Origin: an uncultured bacterium
GTDB lineage: Bacteria; Oederibacteriota; Oederibacteriia; Oederibacteriales; Oederibacteriaceae
Reading direction: 5' to 3'
Assembly (NCBI GenBank): GCA_965112635.1
Contig: OZ218778.1
Span: 160,001-224,000, forward strand
DNA length: 64,000 bases
Below the pieces are notes generated by a model. The model had not been told where the DNA came from. It saw only the letters and a program-made list of their open reading frames with translations, and made no database searches. The position numbers and the translations under genes are program-made. Shown here one piece after another: positions 8,310 to 62,776 of this stretch (its first letter is position 1; every line of letters starts with the position of its first letter).

Positions 8310-8386
8310 TGGTAGGCGGTACAGGGCTTGAACCTGTGACCTCTGCTCTGTGAAAGCAGCGCTCTAGCCAACTGAGCTAACCGCCC
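8310..8386 (-). tRNA. tRNA-Val(CAC)
   Basis: 77-nt cloverleaf GGGCGGT...; anticodon arm CTGCT-TTCACAG-AGCAG; T-loop GGTTCAAGCC; encoded CCA. Confidence 0.96.
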
Positions 8387-44123: not shown

Positions 44124-47100
44124 ATGCACAGAATTAAAGCAAAACTTCTTTTGCTTCTATGGCTGATCCCAGGGTTTTTATTCGTAGCGGATTCCCAGGC
44201 TATCGATCAATTCGTGGTTTGGCAATGCGGACGATACACCGCGCCCAGCCGGGGCTGTATTTACCTCTATCCCTGCGTGAATAACACAGCGATAAACCTT
44301 TATGGTTCGCAGATTTCTGACACCAACATCACCACCCAGAACGCCTGGGTGGGAAATTTCGCGAACGCCGGGAACCTGGGAGGCCAGCCGTGGAATCCTG
44401 TCTGTAATTTCGGCCCTGACTATTATTTTTATGCCAACACTAATTTCCCTTTCCCTTGGGAGATCGATAACGTTCCTGATGGCACTAACAGTGACTATGG
44501 GGTCTGGCTGATGTCCCCCAACGGGTCAGGGGTCGGAAATGTTTTTTTTACCCACCTTAATTGCAATGGCGGTGACGCTTCGAGCGATCAGACCGGCGAC
44601 GCTGTCTCGGTTTACAATCCCAATGCTTTTGCCGTGCCCGTGGATTTTGCCCGCTGGAACGGCGCCAATTGGGTGACTGAAGTGACCGGGCAGGTTATCC
44701 AGGCCCAAAGTATTTGGATGTCCGGCGGCACCATAGGTTTTGGCGCCACAGGCACGAGACTCCCTGAGGCCGGCGATTTTAGGGTGGTGTGCTGCACCGC
44801 CAACGTGTGCGTTCACAAAGGTTTTATTCAAGCCGCCGACCATGATACTTTTTTTACCAACGCCATTGATGTGAATACTGGTTTAAAGATCGGCACGGAT
44901 ATGATCGGATTAGCTTCCAGCACTCCCCTGTCAGGCGTTGCGGCCCAATCCATCATGATTACCGCCGGCCCGGCTGGCGCCCACTACACGATTTTCCAGT
45001 ATGTGCCCAATGGCCCTGCTCCTGTGGGCAATTTCATGGTCGGCATGACCAATAGCGGCAATTGGATCCAAGCCACCAATCTTCCCGGCAACGCCGGGGT
45101 TCTGGGAGCCAACGGAGTCATTGCTCTGCCCGCCATCAACGGCAATAATAACGCAAACGCTGGCGAGGTGAATAACTTTTACCGAGTCGTGACCGATAAC
45201 CCCGTCCAGGTGGCCATCGGCACAAGCATTCTTTCCTCTTACGGCGCCTCGGATTGGGCCGATAGCTTTGATAATCTGGCCAATCCCCTTCCCATGGGCA
45301 ATAACTTTACCTTCTCTTACTACAATCTTTTTCCGCAATCTGCTGACGGTTCAGACCGTTATGTCACGGCTATTTTCCCGAATGCGGGAACCACGGCCAC
45401 CCTTTCCGGCCCGGCCGGCATCATCACGGGCGTATCCAACAATCCCCCCGGCACGATCGCTCCCATCGCGGCAACGAACAGCCGGGCCCAGACCAGTGCC
45501 GCGCCTTATGAGGCAAAAGTCTGGCAACTGAACAGCTTTACAGCCGGCCTGGTCACCCTCAATTTAAACGTGAACAGCGGCGGCCCCGTTTTCTTTAATA
45601 TTTCAGGGGATGTGAACGAAAACAGCGAAGAACGAACCGTGGAAGGCATGATGAACCCCGGGGGTCCCAATTTAACCGTCACATGCCCCAACACTCCGAC
45701 CGTCACCTCTACCCCCACGATCACCTGGACCCCGAACCCCTGTCCTGTCGAGCGCATCTATGCCGGTGCCACAAATTACACGGACACCTCCGGTAACGTA
45801 TGGCAGGCTTTTCAAAATTACTCCGCGGGTGGTTATGGGTTCGTGGGCGCAGGCGACCAACTCACCGGCTCAAATATTCTGGGAACCAACGATTCTGCGT
45901 TGTACCAAAATTCAGCCATCAGTTCTTCTTTTCAATGCATTTTTACACTGCCGGATGGGAACTATGAGCTCACCATGAAATTCGCCGAGTGCTGGCTTGG
46001 AGCCACGATCGGCACCAGAGTTTTCACGGTCACAGCGAACGGGACCCCGATCGCCACCAACCTTGATGTTTATGCCACCGTGGGGGACTTCTATGCCTAC
46101 GACGTGAATAGTGTTGTGACTGTTGCGGGCGGCCTGCTGACGCTTGATTTTACGGCCAGCTCCAATAACGCCATAGTCAGCGCCATACAAGTTCAATCGC
46201 TGTCCTGTTCCACTTCTACACCCACAGTAACCCCGACCGTTTCACCGACGGCTTCATTGACCTGTACCTCCACCAACTCGCCTACCTCCTCAGCGACACC
46301 GACGGCCTCACCAACGGCGACCATAACAAGCACGGCTACGGCTTCTCCCACTGCCTCTAATACGGGTACCGTAACTTCCACGGCCACCCCGACCGCCACG
46401 GACACCTGGATGGCCAGCCCGACCTTTTCCAATACCGCCACCGCAACAGCCACTCTGTCCCAGACCAGCACGCCCACTATATCCAACACGGCCAGCTCCA
46501 CCGCAACAACAACTTTTACATTTACCATAACCCTGACCAGCACTATTACCTGGACCCCATCCCTGACCTTAACTCCTTCCATAACCTGGACCCCGTCCAA
46601 AACTCCTACCCAGACTAATACGGCCACTGTGACCGCCACCAATACCCCTGTGATGACCAACCTGGAGCTCAAGGTCTACAATGAGGCCGGTGAAGTGGTC
46701 AAAACCTTCAGTAATGTCCTTGTCTTGGGTGGGTTTAGCGGTATCCAGCTTTCCTCAGGCAGCGGCTCTACCATCTTTGACCCCAACTCCGGCCTCTTTG
46801 ATATCGAGATCAAGAGCGCTGGCATCATCTACCACGTCCCCTGGGACGGCAAAAGCGACCTGGGCTACCTTGTGGACAGCGGGCAATATGTGCTCAAAGC
46901 CGATATCCCCGGCCTGCAAGGCAATACGGTCGTCATGCCCCTGACCGTGCTCAAGTCAGGAGACCTTTTGACCGTCAGTATCTACACCACCAGCGGAGAG
47001 TTGGTCAAACAGCTTTACCAGAGCTATTTCGTCCAGGGACAATTGGGAAGCATGAAGTTGACCAGTAATTTACTGCAGATAAGCAATCAACCCACAGGGA

Positions 47101-47606
47101 CAACCACGATCGGGATAAACATCTTTTCCTCCACAGGTCAGTTAATGGCAGATGGGCTAGGCTCCTTGAACCAAGCCCGCCTGACCTGGGACGGCACCAC
47201 GGCCTTGGGCAATTATGTGCAAAGCGGAGAGTATTTGATCAAAATAGATCAGACCTACAACCACCAGCACGATGTGCTGGTGCAAAGTGTGACCGTGTTA
47301 AGCTCCAATTTAAGCGGGTTTATGGACGCTTCGGTCTACCCCAACCCGTACCTCTCCACCCCAGACCACAAGGTATGGTTCAAGGTCGCTTTGCAGGACC
47401 AATCCAGCCTGACCGTGAGAATTTATGATGTGGTGGGAGAGCTGGTGAACACCCTCAGCTTGCCCGCAGCCGGGCCTGGCATTGCCACCCTGGGTTGGGA
47501 TGTCAATAATACTGCGGCCGGTCTTTATGTGGGAATTGTAGAAGCCGCTTCACAGGTCAGCGGTCAAACACAGAAAAAACCTTTGAAAATATCAGTTATA
47601 AAGTAG
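44124..47606 (+). CDS. Large secreted protein: unknown N-domain + malectin + Thr-rich linker + FlgD-like Ig domains + T9SS-like CTD (subtype b)
   Basis: Signal peptide; malectin motif (YTDTSGNVW, LPDGNYE...KFAE, RVF.V..NG, VSAIQV); WDGK......SGQY repeats; VYPNP CTD. Confidence 0.85.
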   Translation: MHRIKAKLLLLLWLIPGFLFVADSQAIDQFVVWQCGRYTAPSRGCIYLYPCVNNTAINLYGSQISDTNITTQNAWVGNFANAGNLGGQPWNPVCNFGPDYYFYANTNFPFPWEIDNVPDGTNSDYGVWLMSPNGSGVGNVFFTHLNCNGGDASSDQTGDAVSVYNPNAFAVPVDFARWNGANWVTEVTGQVIQAQSIWMSGGTIGFGATGTRLPEAGDFRVVCCTANVCVHKGFIQAADHDTFFTNAIDVNTGLKIGTDMIGLASSTPLSGVAAQSIMITAGPAGAHYTIFQYVPNGPAPVGNFMVGMTNSGNWIQATNLPGNAGVLGANGVIALPAINGNNNANAGEVNNFYRVVTDNPVQVAIGTSILSSYGASDWADSFDNLANPLPMGNNFTFSYYNLFPQSADGSDRYVTAIFPNAGTTATLSGPAGIITGVSNNPPGTIAPIAATNSRAQTSAAPYEAKVWQLNSFTAGLVTLNLNVNSGGPVFFNISGDVNENSEERTVEGMMNPGGPNLTVTCPNTPTVTSTPTITWTPNPCPVERIYAGATNYTDTSGNVWQAFQNYSAGGYGFVGAGDQLTGSNILGTNDSALYQNSAISSSFQCIFTLPDGNYELTMKFAECWLGATIGTRVFTVTANGTPIATNLDVYATVGDFYAYDVNSVVTVAGGLLTLDFTASSNNAIVSAIQVQSLSCSTSTPTVTPTVSPTASLTCTSTNSPTSSATPTASPTATITSTATASPTASNTGTVTSTATPTATDTWMASPTFSNTATATATLSQTSTPTISNTASSTATTTFTFTITLTSTITWTPSLTLTPSITWTPSKTPTQTNTATVTATNTPVMTNLELKVYNEAGEVVKTFSNVLVLGGFSGIQLSSGSGSTIFDPNSGLFDIEIKSAGIIYHVPWDGKSDLGYLVDSGQYVLKADIPGLQGNTVVMPLTVLKSGDLLTVSIYTTSGELVKQLYQSYFVQGQLGSMKLTSNLLQISNQPTGTTTIGINIFSSTGQLMADGLGSLNQARLTWDGTTALGNYVQSGEYLIKIDQTYNHQHDVLVQSVTVLSSNLSGFMDASVYPNPYLSTPDHKVWFKVALQDQSSLTVRIYDVVGELVNTLSLPAAGPGIATLGWDVNNTAAGLYVGIVEAASQVSGQTQKKPLKISVIK

Positions 47607-51700: not shown

Positions 51701-52558
51701 ACCACCAGTTACACCGGCACCACGACCTATACCGCCACGGTCACGGCATCGCCTAGCAGCACCAGCACCAGGACTTTCACCGGCACAGTCACAGTGACCC
51801 CTTCTCTGACCTTGACCCCTAGTTCTACAAATACCATCACCCAGACCCCGACTTCCAGCACAACCGCAACGGTCACTCAGACCAGTACGCAGACCCTCTC
51901 GCCCAGCCAGACTTTTACAGCTTCAGCCACTCCCACTCGGACTGATACGGCAACCCAAACCATGACTTCTTCTCAGACCCTGACCTCCAGCCAGACCTAT
52001 ACCATCACCCAGACTTTTACTTCTACCGCGACCCCCAGCCAAACCTATACTTTTACCCAGACCGCCACCTTTACTCAGACCTCGACTCCCAGTCAAACCT
52101 TGACTCCTTCTTACACCTCTACCCCTTCCAACACGGTAACCCCTAGCCTCACCCTGACCTCCAGCATGACTTTCACCAATTCACCCACTTTCACTCCTAC
52201 CGCCAGCGCTCCTCTCTGGATCGCTTCCCATGTCCCCTACCCCAACCCTGTGAGGGATAATAATGGAACAAAGCTCTACATCAAAATGACCGATGTACCT
52301 AACCGCATATCCGTCAGGATTTACACTACCTCGATGCGTTTGATTTGGGATATTTCAGTAGAAAACCCGGCACTACAGATCGAGTATAACAACGAGGTCG
52401 CCTATTTCACCTACACCCTACCCTACAGCTTGACGGACAACCACAACGTGCCTCTGGCTAATGGTTTGTATTACTATTCCATCACGGCCAATAATATGAC
52501 CAGCTCCACCAATAGCCGCCAGGCCAGGGTCATGGGTAAATTGGCTGTTTTGAAGTGA
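48728..52558 (+). CDS. Large secreted alpha/beta-hydrolase + LamG-like module + Thr-rich linker + T9SS-like CTD (subtype c)
   Basis: Signal peptide; GVSMGG nucleophile elbow, GKND, NGH; PYPNP...LANGLYYY CTD. Confidence 0.85.
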   Translation: MKKVIFASFLLCFSIFLTPITGWSQQVTGLAVHGPYNGQTILTWNEVNPPAIPASTTSVATVDTYVTNLATANPSYTYNIYHSASQINAVASLTPVATGVRQLTGWNDDNSLPNQAGVPLRFVVDEGGTGNLVPQTPVANGTGVYAYNPATAGPGYYAITVSVNGVENTTITLGQNSLTNPVTETVGRGDPILQCTATEINNPNNFIAQDTTYYYVRWEYPDNCSLFSTPMNYALRVPLGTTFPAPLGINLHCWGANLDNPCYFPPNAGAAGSTPPHLSMLVSSDECPYDWWTGYYDKAWTGMNGGGGETFLPGGSSSWATSGVVKDYSEQRMVSIYDWIAANWDNGSKVDLTRGFIAGVSMGGSGTAMLMIRYPGRFAWCYSSVGVHIPLLSPVFEGSYAGVYGDPTWNVLYQSLTIVPTIRAFDYFDDTQYLASHPTLQTGYMCVANGKNDSGIGWNQAWQYVKAMQAAKMPFIFYWTQNGHQTRACGPYPSAGNNMAIDVQNNQSIPAFENCSIDDAIGDGVEDGTGAGLNGGTHGYATGAINGYLYWNPATIVDTAGSWQMDIGLVSAAHGLTWAASCTVDITPRRLQSFAVSPGQCFNWTNTDLNTSTVIQSGSATADTNGFITLPAVLIKNQLQWQNRINIVPSGTCATKTNTPTETNTPTAGPSQTSTATPTITLTATQTATASITGTPTPTYTAGPSQTGTATGTSTYTATATSACVQFQVACKSSEVPSGNTNGQPVNPAVGPHGTVKISGAGSITFDPFEPGGSPTDGFFCGVGGVTNQSGYWNWSGAQIGTIFSPTGGDVIFYWKSYASMAQRNTDNKTGWSFGVTDDGTRTLWRIEVSPAGGAYNTITWQANSPSSGQYFDTTYTVNAGEIAKFRLSWTATTQSLYINDILIQSGATTAYTPSWGASSQFNIGASAGDNGFSGWKASKDTIADLQVNATCAGNTNTPTVTATLTGTASPTASPTLTYTTGPSQTATNTMTTSYTGTTTYTATVTASPSSTSTRTFTGTVTVTPSLTLTPSSTNTITQTPTSSTTATVTQTSTQTLSPSQTFTASATPTRTDTATQTMTSSQTLTSSQTYTITQTFTSTATPSQTYTFTQTATFTQTSTPSQTLTPSYTSTPSNTVTPSLTLTSSMTFTNSPTFTPTASAPLWIASHVPYPNPVRDNNGTKLYIKMTDVPNRISVRIYTTSMRLIWDISVENPALQIEYNNEVAYFTYTLPYSLTDNHNVPLANGLYYYSITANNMTSSTNSRQARVMGKLAVLK

Positions 52559-52587
52559 TGAACTTTAAACTCAACTAGACAAACCGT

Positions 52588-52771
52588 ACAACACCTGGTG
52601 ACAAAGTCGCGGCCAAGCAAAAATTGGCCAGAGAGCCGAACAGGGGGTTATAAAACAAAATAAAGAACCAGCGATAAAGCCGTCCTGAGGTGTAAACCCG
52701 GGTGGGAGAGCTAACCGTCCTACAGAAAGCTTTGGGGATACAGGGGCATACCGAAAGGTTCTTTTTTTGTT
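52588..52771 (+). ncRNA. Candidate cis-regulatory structured RNA leader, copy 1 (unassigned)
   Basis: Conserved with 55294-55479; stems are kept despite different loop and stem sequences; ends 8 nt before the ATG. Confidence 0.65.
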
Positions 52772-52779
52772 GAAGAAAT

Positions 52780-55163
52780 ATGATAAAAAGTAAAAACAGA
52801 ATATTAGTACTGGTCCTGGTTAGTTTGTTAGAGTTGGGCCTGAGCAAGCCAAGCCTGGCCAAGGTGCTGCTCCAGCAAAGCGATTTCACTTACTTAGGGT
52901 CGTTCAAATGCCCTGATTCGATCGGGTGCTCCAGCGACTCCTCGTTCAGCTATGGAGGGCTGACCCACCGCTACTTGAATGGAAATCTTCAGTTCTTTCT
53001 TTTGGGTCACACTGGCGCTTGCACGCCTTGTTATGAGGTAAATTATCCGGGCGTGTCCGCCGCCTCCCCCCCACCGCTGCTGTGGTCAGATGCTGGGGAG
53101 ATATCTATCACGGACATAAACTCCTCTACGACCAGAACCAGCCCGGCAATCCCACTCCTTATGATTCATGCTCCAACCCCCAGCCAAGCCAAACCGTCGT
53201 TGTCTATGGGTTGTTTTGGGATCCCACCCTGCAGAGGCTTTATTGGTCTTACGGCAACAACTACAACACCACCTGGCCTAGTGACCCGTGTATGGGCTAC
53301 TCCACGCTTAATGATGCTAACGGCACCTCCCAGGGGTTTGGACCCTGGGCGACCGGAGATACGCAGAAGATGTGCCAGGGGGGATTCACCCGTATTCCCT
53401 CGTGGTTCGCCTCTCAATACACAGGAGGCAAGAGTTTGGGGGTAGGATTCGGGGGTTATTTTTCCGTCTGTTCCAGCGCCAGCCTGGGCCCTTATCTGTG
53501 TGCTGTCGCAGACCCCACCACGGAGCCCCCTGTCACCGTGCCCAATCCAAGCCCGGCTCCCCTGCCCCATCTTGATTTGGTGGGATACCCCCACAACCCC
53601 ACCCCCTACACGCAACCGATGCCCTGCCAACGTGACATTGATTATTCCGGCGGGTTTGACGGCTGGCTTCCGCAGGGAGGAGTTGGATATTGGCAATGGA
53701 CGGATACGCTCTGGCAGAGTGGAATATGGGTGGACACCACCAACAAGACGGGGATGCTCTACTTTCCAACGATGGGTGACGGTTTTGTACATTACTGCAA
53801 TGCCGGCATAAACTCCGAACGCGGTTCACACTACTGTTTTGTCTACGATCCCGCTGACCTGGCCACTGTGGCCCAGGGCGCCAACATGTGGTCCATCCAG
53901 CCGAAGGACACCTGGAAAATGCACTATCCTGATGTGAACTATTCCACCATCAATCTTACGACGACCTGCTTTGCGGGAACAGGGTGTCCGGGCCAGTGCT
54001 GCCCCTCTACTTTTACCACTCCAGCCATACCGGATCCCCAAGGTTTTTTGACGTGTTGGGGTGCCGGTCAAAGCCCGTCCCATGTAGTGGCAGGAGTTGA
54101 TTTTGATTCGGCCACCAACACCCTGTACCTGGAGATTTTGGACGTGGATAAAATCGGATGCTGTTCTTTTCCGCCCCGCATCTATGCCTATCAGGTCTCT
54201 GATACCGTGGGAACACCGACAGCGACAGCCACCCAGACTTATTCTGCCACTTCCACGCAAACACCTGTTCCCAGTCTGACCGCCACGACCACAGCCAGCC
54301 TGACCTATACACGGACCTCCAGCCAGACGCCTTCAGCCAGTCCGACCTTTATGCCCTCTTTGACTTCCACACAAACCCCGTCTCCAAGCCTAACTTACAC
54401 CAGGACCTATTCTTTTACCCAGTCCCCTACCTTTTCCCAGACCTTGACTGCCAGCCAGACCTCTTCTCCAAGTTTAACTTCCACCAGGACCTATACTTTT
54501 ACTCAGTCTCCTACTTTTTCCCAGACCTTGACCTCTAGCCAAACCTCCTCTCCAAGTTTAACCTCCACTGGGTCCTATACTTTTACCCCGTCCCCCACTT
54601 TTTCCCAGACCTTGACTCCGAGCCAAACCTCCACCTCCAGCCTGACCGCCACGAAATCTTATACCTCTACCCAGACAGCCACCCCTACCGTGACCCCGAC
54701 TTCCAGCAACACCTACACCCCCTCCCTCACCACGACCCCTTCTTTTACGATGACCCCGAGCATGACCCTGACCTCCAGCCAAACCTTCACCAGCTCGCCC
54801 ACCTGCTCGCCCACGGCCAGCGAATCCCTTTGGATCGCCAGCCATGCACCCTATCCCAACCCCCTCCGCCAAGGTAATCAAGTCTCGGTTTATATGCTCA
54901 TGACCGATGTGCCCGATCGGCTGTCCCTCAAGGTCTACACCGTTTCCATGAGGCTCATCCGCTACATCACGATGGGGGATCCCCGGCATTCTCCAGACCC
55001 TTTAATTGTCTATGACGGCAATGTGGCCCGTTATGCCTACACGGTCGGCATCGACCTGGCCAAACCTAACCTTGTGGCAAACGGCCTTTATTACTATTCG
55101 ATCCAGGCAACTAAAGGGGATAGACAGGCTAAGGTTTTTGGGAAGTTTGTGATCATTAAATAA
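52780..55163 (+). CDS. Secreted Cys-rich protein, Thr-rich linker, T9SS-like CTD (subtype c), frameshifted at poly-C
   Basis: ORFs 52780-53445 and 53082-55163 together align to paralog 55491-58229. One extra C in the C7 run (53066-53072) gives SPPTAAVVRCWGDIY. Confidence 0.8.
54381..54632 (+). repeat. 3 x 84-bp tandem repeat (28-aa unit) in the Thr-rich linker
   Basis: tctccaag at 54381, 54465, 54549; unit SPSLTxTxxYxFTxSPTFSQTLTxSQTS. Confidence 0.85.
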
Positions 55164-55196
55164 CCCGCCTTCTTGTGTGCTATAATCCCAAAAATA

Positions 55197-55224
55197 GGAA
55201 CTTTTACTGTTAATAATTGTCTAA
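55197..55224 (+). promoter_or_regulatory. ECF (sigmaE-like) promoter
   Basis: GGAACTT-N15-GTCTAA; same spacing at 62895-62922. Confidence 0.55.
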
Positions 55225-55293
55225 TTTTCAGCCTTTTAGGGAGGTAGAAAAAGTTTTGCCGTAATTATTCGTCTAACGCAGTGAGTATACTGC

Positions 55294-55479
55294 ACAACAC
55301 CTGGTGACAAAGTCGTGGCCAAGTTCCACTTGGCCAGAGAGCCGAACAGGGGGTTATAAGACAAAATTAAGAACAAGCGAAAAGCCGGTCCGTGGTGTAA
55401 ACCCGGGTGGGAGAGCTAACCGTCCTTTCCCTGTCAGGGGAAAGGATACAGGAGCATACCGAAAGGTTCTTTTTTTGTT
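55294..55479 (+). ncRNA. Candidate cis-regulatory structured RNA leader, copy 2 (unassigned)
   Basis: Homologous to 52588-52771; ends 11 nt before the ATG. Confidence 0.65.
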
Positions 55480-55490
55480 TTTAGAACAAC

Positions 55491-58229
55491 ATGAGCAAGC
55501 AAAGAGTCAATTCGGTCCTGCTCCTCCTAGGCCTGATGGTATTTAGTTTAACCTGCCCATCCCTGGCCAAAGTCATGTACCAGCCCGGAGATTTCACCTA
55601 CCTGGGGTCGTTCAGGATACCAGACTCTCTCGGCTGTACGGACGGATGGCCTTCGTCGTTCAGTTACGGAGGCCTTGCCCACCGCTATGTAAACGGCAAT
55701 CTCCAGTTCTTTCTTTTGGGCCACACCTACGGACCTCCGGATTGCTATGAAATAAATTATCCGGGTGTGTCCCTGGCCGCCCCTCCTATGTCTACCGTTT
55801 TAACCTGCTGGGGAGACATCTACCACGGACATAAGCTCCAGTACAGCGGGCCTGCCGGTAATCCGACCCCAGTGGATACCGTTCCCGGAGGATGCGTTTC
55901 TTACGGCCTGATGTGGGATCCAACCTCGCAAAGGCTTTATTGGTCCTACGGAAATAGTTACAACACGACCTACCAAAACGACCCCAATATGGGCTACTCG
56001 ACCTTCGACGATGTGCACGGCACTTCAGCAGGGTTCGGGCCCTGGGCCACAGGCGACGGGTGTAAGTGCGTCCAGGGAGGTTTTACCCAGATCCCGTCTT
56101 GGTTTGCCACCGCCTACACCGGCGGTAAAACTCTGGGGGTGGGGTTTGGGGGCTATTTTTCCATCGTGGACGTCGGGTCCACTAGCCTGGGCCCGGCGTT
56201 GTGCGCCATCGCGCCTCCCACCGCCGAGCAGCCCGTGACCGGGGCCGATCCCACTCCGCCGCTCCTGCCCTACGTGGACCTGCTCGGTTACCCTTACACC
56301 GGCAATTGCCCGCCGCCCACAGCGGCCTATGACCGCTGCCACCGGGACACCAATTACACCGATGAACTCGACTGCTGGCTGCCCTTTAACGGCACGGGCT
56401 ACTGGACCTGGCTGGACACCCTGTACCAATCCGGGATCTGGTTGGATACGCCCAACAAAAGCGGACTACTCTATTTCACCACTCTGGGGGACGGCGGGAT
56501 GTGCTACGAATGCGCCCTGACCGGCGGTGGGGCTGAACCAGGCTGCGAAAAAGGATCGCATTGGTGGCTTGAATACGACCCTAACGACCTGGCCACGGTT
56601 GCCCAGGGCGCCCACGAATGGTCCGTCCAGCCTAAAATGGCCTGGCAGGTGCAGTATCCTGACGTGCCCTACCCTGGCGGTTATTTAGCCGGATGGGGTG
56701 GAACCGCCCCCTACCAGCCAGCCGGGATCGATTTTGATCCGACCACGAGCACTTTGTATATAGAGGTCTTGGGCGTGGATAGGATAGGTTGTTGTTCCTA
56801 TCCTCCCCGCATCTATGCTTACGCGGTTTCTGATGTGGTGAATCCAACGGCGACGCCGACGCAGACAGCCACTCCGACCCAGACTTTGACGCCCTGGATC
56901 GCTGGTCCAAACTGCAGCACTCCTACCCTGGTGAACCAGGATGTGGGCCTTCCCTACCCGCAGGGAAGCTCCAGTTTGAGCAGCGGCACCTATACGGTCA
57001 ACGGCGGAGGAGAAATGGGGGGCAATCTTGACTCGTTCCAGTTCGATTATATCTATGTGCTGGGGGATGGAACCATGACCGTGCGGGTGGCGAGCCAGCA
57101 GAACACCAACGCCAATGCCATCGCCGGGCTCATGATACGCAACGACCTCTCGCCTAACTCTATGAACATGACCATAGGGCTCCAGCCCGGCGGCACCGGC
57201 GCCACGATGATGTACCGGTCGTCCTATGGAGGAACCGAGGCCGTGGGAGGCAACACGGCGAGCCCGGCGGCCCCGTATTGGGTCAGGCTGGTGAGAAGCG
57301 GCAATAGTTTCAGCGCCTATATATCCCCGGACGGCAACACCTGGACACAGGAAGGTTCCACCGTGACCCTAGGCATCAACACTTACGCCTATTGGGGACT
57401 GGTCGTGAACAGCGCTGTCGTCGCCGGTGTCAATAGTGTGCTGAACACTTCCACCTTTGACAACCTGTGCATCCCCTGGGGACCCTCCACACCGACCTTT
57501 ACGATGACGGCGACGCCAATGTTTACAGCGACCAGCACTTGGACCCCGACCCCCTCCAAAACGGCGACAGCCTCAGCGACTTTCTCGGCCACAGCAAGCT
57601 CTACCCAAACCCCCACCGCTACCCAGACCTTCACGGCCAGCCCGACAGCCACTCGTACGGCTACGGCGACCTATTCTCCGACTCCCAGCCAGACCTTTAC
57701 CTCCACCTTGACGAGCACCAGGACCAATACATCTACCCAGACCGCCACTTTTACCATGACCCTGACCTTCAGCAATACTTTCACGCCTTCCTGCACTATG
57801 ACCCCGTCTTACTCACTGACTCCCAGCCTTACCTTGACCTCCAGCCAGACCTTTACCAGCTCGCCCACCTGTTCACCCACAGCCAGCGAGCCTTTGTGGA
57901 TACCCTACCACGTGGCCTTTCCTAATCCTGACCGCTCTAGCAATCAGGTCACGATCTATATGCTCATGACCGATGTGCCCGACCGGTTGTCCGTGAAGAT
58001 CTATACGGTGGCCATGAGGTTGATCCGCAGCGCGTCCGCGATGGACCTCGATCAATCCTCCGTCCTCCAAGTTGTCTATGATGGCAGCGTCGCCCGCTAT
58101 TCCTATGCGGTCAGCATGGACCTTACCAAACCCGACATCGTGGCAGACGGCCTGTATTATTACTCGATCCAGGCTGATAAAGGCGGCAAGCGGGCCAGGG
58201 TCATTGGAAAACTCGTCATTATGAGGTAA
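55491..58229 (+). CDS. Secreted Cys-rich protein with DUF1349/ConA-like lectin module, Thr-rich linker, T9SS-like CTD (subtype c)
   Basis: Signal peptide; DSFQF.Y...GDG...RV...AGLMIR...PYWVRLVRSGN.F.AY.SPDG..WT; FPNP CTD. Confidence 0.85.
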   Translation: MSKQRVNSVLLLLGLMVFSLTCPSLAKVMYQPGDFTYLGSFRIPDSLGCTDGWPSSFSYGGLAHRYVNGNLQFFLLGHTYGPPDCYEINYPGVSLAAPPMSTVLTCWGDIYHGHKLQYSGPAGNPTPVDTVPGGCVSYGLMWDPTSQRLYWSYGNSYNTTYQNDPNMGYSTFDDVHGTSAGFGPWATGDGCKCVQGGFTQIPSWFATAYTGGKTLGVGFGGYFSIVDVGSTSLGPALCAIAPPTAEQPVTGADPTPPLLPYVDLLGYPYTGNCPPPTAAYDRCHRDTNYTDELDCWLPFNGTGYWTWLDTLYQSGIWLDTPNKSGLLYFTTLGDGGMCYECALTGGGAEPGCEKGSHWWLEYDPNDLATVAQGAHEWSVQPKMAWQVQYPDVPYPGGYLAGWGGTAPYQPAGIDFDPTTSTLYIEVLGVDRIGCCSYPPRIYAYAVSDVVNPTATPTQTATPTQTLTPWIAGPNCSTPTLVNQDVGLPYPQGSSSLSSGTYTVNGGGEMGGNLDSFQFDYIYVLGDGTMTVRVASQQNTNANAIAGLMIRNDLSPNSMNMTIGLQPGGTGATMMYRSSYGGTEAVGGNTASPAAPYWVRLVRSGNSFSAYISPDGNTWTQEGSTVTLGINTYAYWGLVVNSAVVAGVNSVLNTSTFDNLCIPWGPSTPTFTMTATPMFTATSTWTPTPSKTATASATFSATASSTQTPTATQTFTASPTATRTATATYSPTPSQTFTSTLTSTRTNTSTQTATFTMTLTFSNTFTPSCTMTPSYSLTPSLTLTSSQTFTSSPTCSPTASEPLWIPYHVAFPNPDRSSNQVTIYMLMTDVPDRLSVKIYTVAMRLIRSASAMDLDQSSVLQVVYDGSVARYSYAVSMDLTKPDIVADGLYYYSIQADKGGKRARVIGKLVIMR

Positions 58230-58407
58230 TTTGTTTTTCAAAGTAATAGGCTGTTGAAAAACTCTAAATAACTGCCCTCTCATTATTCCTTTAAGGACAG
58301 CTCCTTATTGTGGTAGAAACCTTATGTGACTATAATTGCCCCATTAGTAGTTTCCCCTGCTACTGTTTCTCTTTGCAGTGCTGGTATTACAAAAGAGACG
58401 GCAAAGC

Positions 58408-61400
58408 ATGAAAACAAAATATTTTACATACAGCAGCCTGATCGTCTATTTATTCCTTCTTCTGATGTTCCCTACCCCGTTACAGCCAGCAGTATGCAGC
58501 AATAATCCCGGCAAGGACGGCTCGGGAAACATTGGGGGAGTGGTCAACACCTACTACCCTGCCACGGCCTCAGTGGGCGCCGGAGCCGGAGCCATCCCCG
58601 TGGGTCCTATTAATGCCTGGGGCAGTCAGACCCCCATTTCAGCCGGAGACCTGCTCTTGGTCATCCAGATGCAGGATGCCACCATAGACTATACCGATAC
58701 GGATTCCTACGGGGACGGCACAGCTGGAGCTCCGGCCTCAGGTCAAACCGGCGTGGGCAACACCGGTACATTCGAATACGTGCTGGCCTCAGGTCCGGTA
58801 GCCGGCGGCGTTGTTCCCCTGAGTACTCCCCTGCAGAATGCCTACCACGAGGCTGCGGCCACAGCCACGCTGGGACAAAAGACCTATCAAGTGGTGAGGG
58901 TGCCCCAATACGCCAATCCTTCGTTGACCTCAAACTTGACCGCGGCCTACTGGAACGGCAGCAGCGGCGGTGTCCTGGCCTTTGACGTCTGCGGCACCAT
59001 GAACCTGAACAATGCCACGGTCAGTGTGGACGGTACTGGTTTCCGCGGAGGTGGCGGCTTTTTAGGCACAGGCGGAGGTGACGTTGCTGGTTATGTGACG
59101 GTGGTCGACCCCACGGGCGCAGATACCAGCGCCGAGAAAGGCGAGGGCATCGCGGGAACACCTCGGTTGGTCGCCAATGCCTATGGAGGGACCATTATTG
59201 ACACCGGAGTGGAGGGATACCCTGGAGGGAGTGCGCGCAGGGGAGCGCCCGCTAACGCGGGCGGGGGCGGCAACCAATGGCAGTCGGGAGGAGGAGGAGG
59301 CTCCAACGCTGGTGCAGGCGGCACTGGTGGAGATACCATTTCTTTCATCGACGATCCGTACGGAGGTTATGGGGGAGCGGTCTTTCCCTCTTCCAGCACC
59401 AGCCTGATCATGGGAGGCGGAGGCGGAGCTGGAGCCAGTAATAACGGCGGGAATGAAGTGAATTTCTGCAGCGGAGGAGCCGGAGGCGGGATCGTGATGA
59501 TCCGCACGGGTTCGGTTGCCGGAACAGGCACGATCTCGGCTAATGGAACTAAGGGAGTGGATGGGGGTGCCTGGGATGAAAACAACGCAGGAAACAATAA
59601 TGAATCCGCCTCAGGAGGAAGCGGCGGTGGAGGAAGCGTCCTGATCAGCTCCGCGGGAGCCCTGGGTGGATTGACCTGTGAACGCCAACGGAGGAGCTGG
59701 TGGGGACAATCTGCCCCGGTCCAATCCTCCTAATTACCTCCACGGTCCGGGAGGCGGGGGTGGCGGAGGAGCGGTGTTTCTTTCCGGCGCTCCAGCTGCA
59801 GCCACGGTTAATGGAGGAGCTCCTGGAACAACAGGTGGGGTAAATTACAATGCCACAACGGGGTCCGCAGGGCAAATAAGCACTTCCCTAGCCTCCAACA
59901 CCTGCTCAGGAGCCTGCGGCCCGGCATCTACCCCGTCGCTTACACCTACCCTGGAACCGGTTGCCTGCACGACCCCGGGCAGTAGCACTGCCACGCTTTC
60001 CGGGGTCATTAATACCTATTATCCGGGGGCCAACGGAACCGTGACTCAGGGATCTATGGCTATCCCGGTGGGAGCCATGCGGGCCGGCGGCGGGCCCGCC
60101 ATTGCGGCCGGAGACCTGCTCTTGGTCATCCAAATGCAGGCGGCTACTATAAATTCAAGCAATACGGCCTTTTATGGGGATGGGACAGGCAACGCCTCGG
60201 GGTCCACCAGCCTGCAAAACGCCGGAGTTTTTGAATACGCGGTGACCACAGGGCCGGTTGTGGGTGGTGTCGTTTCACTCATGGGTCCTTTGATGAACTC
60301 CTATACCAACGCGGCAGCCACCGGCGTGCAAGGCCAGGAGACCTATCAGGTGGTGAGGGTTCCGCAGTATTTTAACGCCACCTTGACCGGAGGTTTGACT
60401 GCTCTGCCCTGGGACGGTTCCAGCGGAGGCATCCTGGACTTTAATGTCTCGGGCACACTGAATTTGAACGGAGCCACGGTAAACATAGATGCTATGGGTT
60501 TCCGCGGTGGCGGCGGCAGGCAGCTCGGGGGCGGGGCAGGTGGATTGCTGACGGACTTTGTGAACCTTTCCACCAATAATTTCTATGGTCAAAAAGGAGA
60601 AGGCATCGCGGGCACTCCTAGGTTTGTATATGATTCCGTGACCATGGCTGAGGTGGATACTGGAGTGGAAGGATACCCCAATGGCAGTACTTGCCGGGGA
60701 GCACCGGGTAATGGCGGCGGGGGTGGCAGTGATGACTATCCGATTGGCAACCTGGACAACGCTGGTGGCGGTGGAGGAGGCAATGGCGGCACAGGAGGCA
60801 AGGGAGGAAATACCTGGAATCAGGATTTACCTATAGGAGGATACGGAGGAGTGGCGTTCCCAGCCTCAGCCAACAGACTTATCCTGGGAGGAGGCGGAGG
60901 AGCCGGAGATGATAATAATAGTGGAAATCCTAGCAGCAGCGGTGGATCAGGAGGAGGATTAGTCATCATCAAGGCCTGCACCTGTATCAGTACCGGGACC
61001 ATTACAGCCAATGGCGGATTTGGGGTAACCCCAGGCCTTGACGCAGGCGGTGGCGGTGGTGCGGGAGGAAGCGTGGTGTTCTTGACAGGAGGAGGAATAG
61101 GCGGACTGACCTTGCACGCCGACGGCGCCAATGGAACAGATGCTTCTTTGTCTTGGGCGAATCCTCCACCCTGGCATGGGCCCGGAGGTGGAGGTGGTGG
61201 CGGTGTAATATTTGTTTCCGGCGCCCCGGCTGCAGCTACGGCCAATGGAGGTATGAACGGATCAACAGGTATTCCATTATCTCTTTATAGTTCTAAACCG
61301 GGGAATAACGGCATTATTTCCACTACTCTTCCCTATCCTGAGCAAGGATGTATTTGCGGTATTTCTCCAACATTCACATCCACTGCTACCATCACGTCAA

Positions 61401-62776
61401 CCAGTACAAGCACAGCGACGGCGACACCTACCGCAACCGTTACGGTCAGTCCTACGTTGACCTCCACAAACACAACCAGTGCTACGGCCACCATCACCCT
61501 AACCAGTACGGCCACAGAGACTGCAACCCCTACGGCCACGGCGACGACTTTGTACTCCTCGACCAGTACGAATACAACTACTGAAACGGCAACGCCTACT
61601 GGCACATCGACACCTTTACCCACCTCGACCACTACAAACACCACCACCGAGACAGCGACGGCTACGACTACATCCACCATCACCCTAACTCAAACCAACA
61701 CCGTAACATTTTCTGTGACCTTAACCTCCTCTCTGACCTGGACCTCTTCCCAGACCTGGACTCCCTCCAAGACTCCCACGCAGACCTGCACGGCTACCGT
61801 GACCGCTACCAACACTCCAGTCATGACCAACCTGGAATTAAAGGTCTACAACGAGGCGGGAGAGGTGGTCAGGACCCTTCCCAACCTGCTGGTCTTGGGA
61901 GGCTTCAGCGGTATCCAGCTCACTCCGGGAAGCGGCTCCCCTGCTTTTGACCCCAGCACCGGTATTTTTGACATAGAGGTCCTCAGCAGCGGCATCGTGT
62001 ATCACATCCCCTGGGACGGCAAGAGCGATCTGGGCTATCTTGTGGACAGCGGGCAATACATTCTCAAGGCTGATATCCCAGGCCAGCCAGGCAATACGGT
62101 CACCATGGGCTTGACCGTGCTCAAGGCAGGAGACTATTTGACCGTCAGCGTCTATACCCCCAGCGGTGAACTGGTCAAACAGCTGTACAGCAGCTACCTG
62201 GTGCAAGGGCAATTGGGAGGCATGGATTTGACCAGTAAATTACTGCAGATAAGTAATCAGACCATAGGAACAGTTAAAATTGGGATAGACGTTATATCCT
62301 CTACCGGAACCTTGATAGCGGACAACCTAGGACCTTTGAACCAGGCCCGCCTGGTTTGGGACGGCACCACGGCTTTGGGCAATTATGTACAGAGCGGAGA
62401 GTATTTGATCAAGATAGAGCAGGTCTACAACCATCAGCATGACGTGGTGGTGCAAAGCGTAACCGTGTTAAGCTCCGATTTGAACGGGTTTATGGACGCT
62501 TCGGTCTATCCCAACCCGTACCTCTCCACCCCTGACCACAAGGTATGGTTCAAGGTCACTTTGCAGGACCAATCCAACCTGACCGTGAGAATTTACAATG
62601 TGGTGGGAGAGCTGGTGAACACCCTCAGCTTGCCTGCGGCCGGGCCTGGAGTAGCTTCCGTAGGTTGGGACATGACCTCAGTAGCCAGCGGTCTTTATGT
62701 GGGGATCGTGGAGGCCGACTCCCAGGTCAGCGGACAAACGCAGAAAAAACCTTTGAAAATTAGTGTCATCAAATAA
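58408..62776 (+). CDS. Large secreted adhesin-like protein with two glycine-rich domains, Thr-rich linker, FlgD-like Ig domains and CTD (subtype b), frameshifted
   Basis: ORFs 58378-59733 and 59678-62776 join if the extra T at 59677 is removed (GGLTVNANGGAG). Duplicated NTYYP...GDLLLVIQMQ...YQVVRVPQY...GFRGGGG domain. Confidence 0.8.

Follow-up and report, generated by a model that had tools for sequence, protein, structure and literature searches.

Two RNA leaders in this 64,000-nucleotide stretch of DNA (the window, meaning the whole stretch analysed) probably act as c-di-GMP OFF switches: each consists of a diverged aptamer of the c-di-GMP-I (GEMM-I) class, domain 2, placed behind a miniature of the same pattern that lacks the P3 helix, domain 1. 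The window belongs to a genome of 2,876,006 bases (2.88 Mb) assembled as one contig, in which domain 2 recurs ten times, and the leaders and genes A and B described below lie on the forward (+) strand of the window. An earlier note, written from the letters alone, had taken the leader for a new tandem class with echoes of glycine and c-di-GMP-I aptamers; the analysis below keeps much of its description and changes its classification.

The leader, of some 185 nt, is found at 52588-52772 and again at 55294-55480, and the strings that the earlier note described for both copies are present there. The cores are near-identical between copies, with loops, flanks and coding regions diverged: when 52588-52779 is aligned with 55294-55490, 168 of 207 columns are identical, and most of the differences sit in the loop of the domain-1 hairpin, at the P3 tip of domain 2 and in the stretch before the ATG. 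The 150 nt upstream of the two copies are unrelated (83/176 identical), and the genes behind them, A and B, are paralogues, both as first noticed. Over the first ~300 nt of their coding regions 210 of 310 positions are identical, and their proteins share 64% identity over 98 aligned N-terminal columns and 46% over the 850 remaining aligned columns, so the leader cores are far better kept than the genes downstream. Gene conversion by itself would not explain this pattern, since the loops of the leaders have diverged completely. Both leaders also fold somewhat better than shuffled sequences, with an MFE z-score of -1.85 for copy 1 (9 of 200 shuffles as good) and -2.78 for copy 2 (1 of 200). Gene A (52780..55163 in the ORF list) encodes a secreted protein with a signal peptide and is split into overlapping frames, 52780-53445 and 53082-55163; its alignment to gene B switches frame near residue 98-103, which suggests a frameshift, whether genuine or introduced in assembly. 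Gene B (55491..58229, ORF list) encodes a secreted protein of 912 aa, also with a signal peptide, and neither gene has a Pfam or NCBIfam family. Elsewhere in the window, two neighbouring genes, 58378-59733 and 59678-62776, match the N-terminal domain of AgmC, a gliding-motility protein, at 107 and 121 bits (cut-off 275), the latter gene ending in a T9SS sorting domain, and the gene at 44124-47606 combines a Malectin domain with a T9SS tail.

Domain 2 is the part of the leader that travels alone: BLASTN of copy 1 against the whole genome showed that the leader's second half also occurs by itself elsewhere. Two covariance models were built, R1 from seven divergent copies and R2 from 13 divergent copies only, given a GEMM-I-like structure; the R2 seed includes two near-canonical paralogues (L026 and L027) and its calibration is rough. 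At E<=1 each model finds exactly ten domain-2 copies in the genome, with no other match. In the window these are copy 1 at 52658..52774 (R1 116.4 bits, R2 99.2 bits) and copy 2 at 55364..55482 (R1 119.5 bits, R2 105.2 bits). Sixty other genomes of the phylum were searched with R1; two of them, both Candidatus Firestonebacteria MAGs, contain three further copies between them. A strict sequence pattern run on one genome per GTDB species returned 111 loci, four of which pass R1, all in Firestonebacteria MAGs; a pattern scan of metagenome contigs returned 18 loci, four of which pass R1, and adds no new diversity because the four passing bit scores equal those of the Firestonebacteria copies. Among the collections searched, the divergent form is present in only two lineages, and the 13 divergent sequences, ten of them paralogues of one genome, reflect few independent evolutionary events. 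Because domain 2 recurs ten times in the genome with compensatory changes, the motif is more than chance, and the original reading of a structured 5' leader of the riboswitch type holds.

The standard annotation route misses this family. With Rfam 15 at gathering level, the window yields no match in the leaders and only a tRNA at 8313-8386; at E<=10, 52400-55700 gives only eukaryotic and other junk matches, and 55285-55495 (211 nt) gives junk only, with no match in the c-di-GMP clan. No domain-2 copy reaches the gathering score of RF01051 (c-di-GMP-I; best 26.1 vs 35 bits), and a genome-wide search found no aptamer over the Rfam c-di-GMP-I cut-off in this genome. The relationship is nevertheless seen through the paralogues. 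L027 matches RF01051 over its full length (model positions 1-87) with 26.1 bits, E being 0.0016 on 171 nt and 0.006 genome-wide, and L024 matches RF03167 (c-di-GMP-I-GGC) at 17.9 bits, below the cut-off of 59. Canonical c-di-GMP-I riboswitches over the cut-off are present in 10 of 99 genomes of the phylum, and one Firestonebacteria MAG (G051) carries a canonical aptamer (55 bits) as well as the divergent type. The purpose-built models lead in the same direction: R1 matches three Rfam-passing c-di-GMP-I riboswitches at E 4e-4 to 0.012, and R2 matches 12 of 26 Rfam-passing canonical loci at E<=1, at the Rfam coordinates, the best four at 44, 34.9, 32.2 and 28.4 bits (E 4e-10 to 2.5e-5). On 90 decoy loci with the same primary-sequence pattern (251.5 kb), R2 gave one match, at E 0.82. 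L026 and L027 are near-canonical and grade into the canonical form. At the level of these model comparisons, domain 2 is established as a homologue of GEMM-I, a far-diverged relative and no new class. The proposal of an unmatched class therefore falls, and what had looked like a partial c-di-GMP-I echo is a true relationship. A significant match to an existing Rfam family, which the earlier note had named as the result that would overturn it, is lacking for the window copies themselves and is found indirectly, via the paralogues and the purpose-built model.

The fold that domain 2 has in common with c-di-GMP-I RNAs (RF01051, clan CL00126; e.g. Vc2 of Vibrio cholerae) is a junction of three helices, P1, P2 and P3; positions are from the model alignment and are given for copy 1, then copy 2. 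The outer helix of P1 (52663-52669 with 52757-52763 in copy 1) covaries between copies (AAGAAC/GUUCUU, AAGAUA/UAUCUU, AUCAUCA/UGAUGAU), and its inner part is YG..CG. J1/2 reads (A)AAAAG, its last G (52679; 55384) matching G20. P2a has two pairs (CC 52680-81 with GG 52705-06; CC 55385-86 with GG 55410-11), which are C-G and C-G in the divergent copies and G-C and C-G in canonical RNAs. After P2a a G stands opposite a G, to which the canonical AAA/GNC internal loop is reduced, and P2b is capped by a GNRA loop in 13/13 divergent copies (GUAA in copy 2), like the first hairpin of c-di-GMP-I. J2/3 is A-R, its A (52707; 55412) matching A47, which we take to be the intercalating position of the c-di-GMP-I aptamer. 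P3 opens with A-GCU, continues with a 2-nt bulge and CC, and closes with GG-RGY-(A)-U around a 3-nt bulge (ACA, CAA or CCC; ACA at 52740-42 and 55448-50). Its tip is variable, and between the window copies the tip differs in length and sequence with the hairpin kept, as had been described. J3/1 is (A/G)-C, the C (52751; 55459) matching C92, and is followed by the CG of P1. The purine-rich AAAAG, the two-pair P2a, the A-R-A that opens P3 and the closing ..U-(A/G)-C-CG are all points of likeness to the canonical class. The earlier note had read GUGAC-AAA-GUCG and GCGA-AAA-GCCG as hairpins; the strings are there, but on the alignment they are better understood as J1/2 with the first P2 pairs.

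Covariation supports this three-helix fold, as far as model-fitted alignments can be used for the purpose. In the alignment of 25 sequences (A5, 13 divergent and 12 canonical) 88.0% of cells pair vs 69.4% in shuffles, with 0/500 shuffles reaching the observed value, 22/27 pairs changed on both sides and slid controls pairing at 30-45%; in the alignment of the 13 divergent copies (A4) the corresponding values are 92.5% vs 79.2%, 0/500, 16/27 and 33-50%; none of these figures is a probability, because the alignments are model-fitted and ten rows are paralogues. Least biased are the eight pairs of P2a and P3a, which lie outside the model that produced A4. Over the 25 sequences, the first P2a pair is G-C in 13 and C-G in 12 and is never unpaired.

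Several features set the divergent copies apart from canonical c-di-GMP-I RNAs beyond their scores, which lie below the Rfam cut-off. P3a has two pairs and a 2-nt 5' bulge where the canonical helix has three pairs, there is an extra A before the closing U, and the canonical CCUAA/UAUGG 11-nt tetraloop receptor is visible only in L026 and L027, none having been identified in the window copies. The c-di-GMP-I-GGC family (RF03167) belongs to the same clan, has the same fold and is the sole other Rfam family matched; its consensus has a G at the first junction position after P2a, whereas the divergent copies keep an A there (the A47 column, 13/13) and vary the second position, and with the best score at 17.9 vs 59 bits they fall outside that family. 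The cGAMP riboswitch (GEMM-Ib) is built on the same GEMM-I scaffold. As for glycine, the likeness comes down to the short strings GGAGAG and ACCGAA, which in the GEMM-I alignment belong to J2/3 and the beginning of P3 in the one case and to J3/1 and P1 in the other; there was no Rfam glycine match at E<=10 on any stretch searched, and a glycine riboswitch was rejected.

Domain 1 (52588..52649 in copy 1, from the sequence; 55294..55355 in copy 2, from sequence and alignment) repeats the pattern of domain 2 on a smaller scale, as the earlier note had recognised: it has its own P1, J1/2 and P2, and ends in C-CG-AA like domain 2. Its layout is CCUG-G-UG-ACAAAG-UC-G-(C/U)-hairpin-A-GA-GAG-C-CG-AA-CAGG, that is, a P1 of CCUG/CAGG with an inner UG..CG, an ACAAAG junction, UC/GA pairs, a GGCCAAG/CUUGGCC hairpin with a variable loop, and then GAG-C-CG-AA. 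In GEMM-I terms this reads as P1, a J1/2 with its G, P2a with two pairs, a P2b that lacks the GNRA loop, and directly after it the C-CG of J3/1 and P1, with no P3. Neither R2, in the genome search, nor Rfam matches it. Domain 1 is confined to this genome, in two full copies and one 34-nt partial copy at 414286; BLASTN over 99 genomes of the phylum gave, outside its own genome, only matches of 28 nt or less with E 8e-4 or weaker, and the related leader L021 keeps only its outer shell. The partial copy (L006, G000:C1:414286-414319) is 85% identical to the domain-1 5' half and lies before another signal-peptide gene; a different hairpin follows, then a GGAGCAU box 9 nt before the ATG, and this may possibly be a decayed or recombined leader. 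Between the two full copies the stems are unchanged while the loop differs at 5/8 positions, with one stem-adjacent change, which argues that the hairpin is still under selection, as far as two sequences, which cannot prove it, can tell. Tandem c-di-GMP-I riboswitches are frequent, with 347 doublets and 12 triplets (PMC9481103), and the most likely origin of domain 1 is an upstream aptamer of such a tandem, of which it would be what remains; because such tandems are frequent in the class, decay is the economical reading.

How would the leader act on expression? We propose that c-di-GMP made by the genome's GGDEF enzymes would bind domain 2 and that binding would stabilise the junction and P1. 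The closed aptamer, through P1 and its A-rich/U-rich extension into a run of seven U, would then act as an intrinsic terminator; alternatively, it would block the adjacent initiation region. Either way, high c-di-GMP would lower expression. The terminator version is suggested because the P1 3' strand runs straight into the U tract, at 52762..52768 in copy 1 and 55470..55476 in copy 2. The P1 3' strand runs directly into at least six U in 8 of the 13 divergent copies, both window copies included, and among these U-run copies P1 shows covariation (GUUCUU or UAUCUU). A separate SD and start codon lie further downstream of the U-run in L022, L020 and the Firestonebacteria copies, so that the U-run is not simply part of a ribosome-binding site. 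In the window, the U-run ends 11 nt (copy 1) or 14 nt (copy 2) before the ATG, and the U-rich strand including its GUU ends 8 nt or 11 nt before it, in agreement with the 8-11 nt of the earlier note; no other hairpin fits between aptamer and start codon. The step from P1 to termination is uncertain, because the P1 stem is weak, A-U rich, interrupted by a ~90-nt insert and uncalled by the scan: a simple promoter and terminator scan of the + strand over 52300-55700 found no site, though that scan covers only stems with loops of 3-8 nt, for which a P1 stem with a ~90-nt insert cannot qualify. The window leaders differ here from canonical RNAs in having P1 run into the U-run without a separate terminator hairpin. 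In L023, L024 and L025 (3/13) the start codon, AUG or GUG, lies inside the P1 3' strand, 7-10 nt after the AGGGG of P3, and for these copies we infer translational OFF control by the P1 helix. An ON mechanism, with the P1 3' strand (GUUCU/UUCUU) pairing with an AGAAC/AAGAA box near the start in copies 1 and 2 and in L020, was rejected as the main model because it offers only five A-U-rich pairs and is absent from L021, L022 and the Firestonebacteria copies.

Other loci add observations on platforms and starts. L154 (G059:C206:1202-1360) scores 66.3 bits as a canonical c-di-GMP-I riboswitch and has P2a in its C-G/C-G form; the 3' strand of its P3 is able to pair with a CAACCCGG box further downstream, after which comes a U-run, and this makes a classical competing terminator in which it is P3 that is competed for. 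Downstream of the aptamer, L026 (G000:C1:1605299-1605360) and L027 (G000:C1:991859-991920) have in common a conserved stretch of ~60 nt, which lies about 125-135 nt ahead of their STAS genes and may be an expression platform. In L020 (G000:C1:2829848-2830061) and L021 (G000:C1:2723005-2723146) the signal-peptide frames are open back into the aptamer and no ATG, GTG or TTG is sensibly placed, so that the start codons are uncertain; L021 has a TTG with its own GGGAG inside the P3 hairpin, and L020 an ATA 7 nt after AGGAGG. No RNA run turned up among the sequencing runs, and of five peat-metagenome DNA runs four contain a small share of the sequence words.

The ten aptamers of the genome head secreted, giant or T9SS-linked surface-protein genes and STAS regulators. 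Besides genes A and B, the genes concerned are those of a further pair of signal-peptide proteins (a beta-helix and CBM11 in one of them), of a protein of 591 aa that matches no family, and of a set of three small exported proteins, as well as the two STAS genes behind L026 and L027 and two giant ORFs. Each giant ORF lies behind an aptamer copy: one, in L195 (G000:C1:2648000-2658250, - strand), is open for 3393 aa, and the other, in L197 (G000:C1:1816700-1826900), is open for 3039 aa and is preceded by a PorV/PorQ family gene (157 bits), also among the genes that the aptamers head. Both giant ORFs run off the fetched stretch and neither has a Pfam match. In the Firestonebacteria MAGs the motif precedes GAF-PAS proteins. 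By analogy, this would be a regulon of the kind that c-di-GMP usually governs, and the window itself looks like a surface-protein island; it is again like c-di-GMP-I that the RNA precedes surface and signalling genes, in their 5' leaders, and that the genome encodes GGDEF enzymes. Elsewhere in the genome, G000:C1:1468706-1468774 gives a sub-threshold match to c-di-GMP-II (RF01786; 25.8 bits, cut-off 53.5, E 0.004).

The nucleotides expected to touch the ligand argue for c-di-GMP. In 13/13 divergent copies the base before P2a is G, the one after P2a is A and the one preceding the 3' strand of P1 is C, as at G20, A47 and C92, an equivalence that rests on the R2 and Rfam alignments, and the genome has 11 GGDEF matches. 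PMC6140456 describes G20 as reading one guanine of c-di-GMP and C92 as the pairing partner of the second, with A at position 20 as the mark of cGAMP sensors. Because these contact equivalents are kept throughout and GGDEF matches are present, c-di-GMP is the most likely ligand, in agreement with the signalling nucleotide that the earlier note had thought plausible. What surrounds these positions is less canonical. Two contacts hold the arms of GEMM-I together, the tetraloop-receptor contact and the C44-G83 pair (PMC11705072). The C44 column is G in 13/13 divergent copies (52704 in copy 1, 55409 in copy 2) and C in 12/12 aligned canonical ones, and the 3-nt bulge at the G83 place has C and no G in 13/13, where the canonical set contains G. 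The tertiary pair is thus apparently reversed in the divergent copies, on an alignment that spans only two lineages. According to the same source (PMC11705072), Vc2 engineered to carry a C44G/G83C swap did not regain ligand binding; the natural swap can therefore not be assumed to be neutral for binding, and the natural version would have to be compensated elsewhere or work differently.

Such changes raise the question of whether the same GEMM-I-derived fold has altered its specificity, for example towards a different cyclic or linear dinucleotide. The core neighbourhood is indeed unlike that of each of the 12 canonical sequences in the alignment: at position 48, 7/13 divergent copies have G and 12/12 canonical ones A, the P2 internal loop is lost, the C44-G83 partners are changed and the extra A is present. 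Moreover, canonical and divergent forms coexist in MAG G051, the pattern expected of variants that gain a new ligand, and no aptamer of the window's own genome passes the Rfam cut-off. Yet the three positions that read the ligand bases are unchanged in all 13 copies, with the G kept at position 20 where cGAMP sensors have A (PMC6140456), L026 and L027 grade into the canonical form and the gene context is typical of c-di-GMP, so that we consider a change of ligand unlikely. For domain 1 the corresponding question is whether it is a working minimal two-helix second sensor that cooperates with domain 2. Its repeated P1, J1/2 and P2 pattern, its unchanged stems in front of coding regions only 46-64% identical, and the frequency of tandem c-di-GMP-I aptamers (PMC9481103) would fit such a device. 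A tandem riboswitch, however, has two complete aptamers per leader, and domain 1 has no P3, which is among the three pocket-building helices; R2 and Rfam do not detect it, it is found in one genome only, L021 makes do with its outer shell, eight other copies work without it, and two sequences cannot show covariation. We regard a cooperative tandem as quite improbable, and a decayed companion of domain 2 as the better account.

A bolder combination of these two ideas would see in the divergent copies a subclass beyond drift, in which the reversed C44-G83 pair and the lost P2 loop mark a GEMM-I architecture that reads another nucleotide or tolerates the change that failed in Vc2, with domain 1 as a working two-helix sensor besides; we would give it only a small chance. 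At the other extreme, the duplicated leader could be no ligand sensor at all but a protein-binding site, an RNA-stability element or a remnant of duplication. Most copies are paralogues of one genome and the simple scan saw no promoter-like or terminator-like site on the + strand, which leaves some room for this view. It does not sit well with compensatory changes through all helices, with junction nucleotides that do not vary between the two lineages, with homology at model level to a riboswitch class that has been validated, or with start codons embedded in P1 in three copies, and we think it very improbable. The reading that we retain is the c-di-GMP OFF switch, with domain 2 as the sensor.

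A literature search, within the library covered, returned no paper linking Firestonebacteria and riboswitches. The leaders described here indicate that in a candidate phylum one genome of 2.9 Mb can contain ten riboswitches of the c-di-GMP type, every one of them missed by standard Rfam annotation, and riboswitch censuses of uncultured lineages are therefore undercounts. Through this family, second-messenger control is connected with 'dark' proteins, both giant and secreted, with a PorV/PorQ gene and with STAS regulators. The family further provides natural sequences with an apparently reversed GEMM-I tertiary contact, a test set for how the arms of the aptamer are held and how its ligand is chosen; if the reversal is true, it would show either a scaffold that tolerates a change that failed in Vc2 or one that reads another nucleotide.
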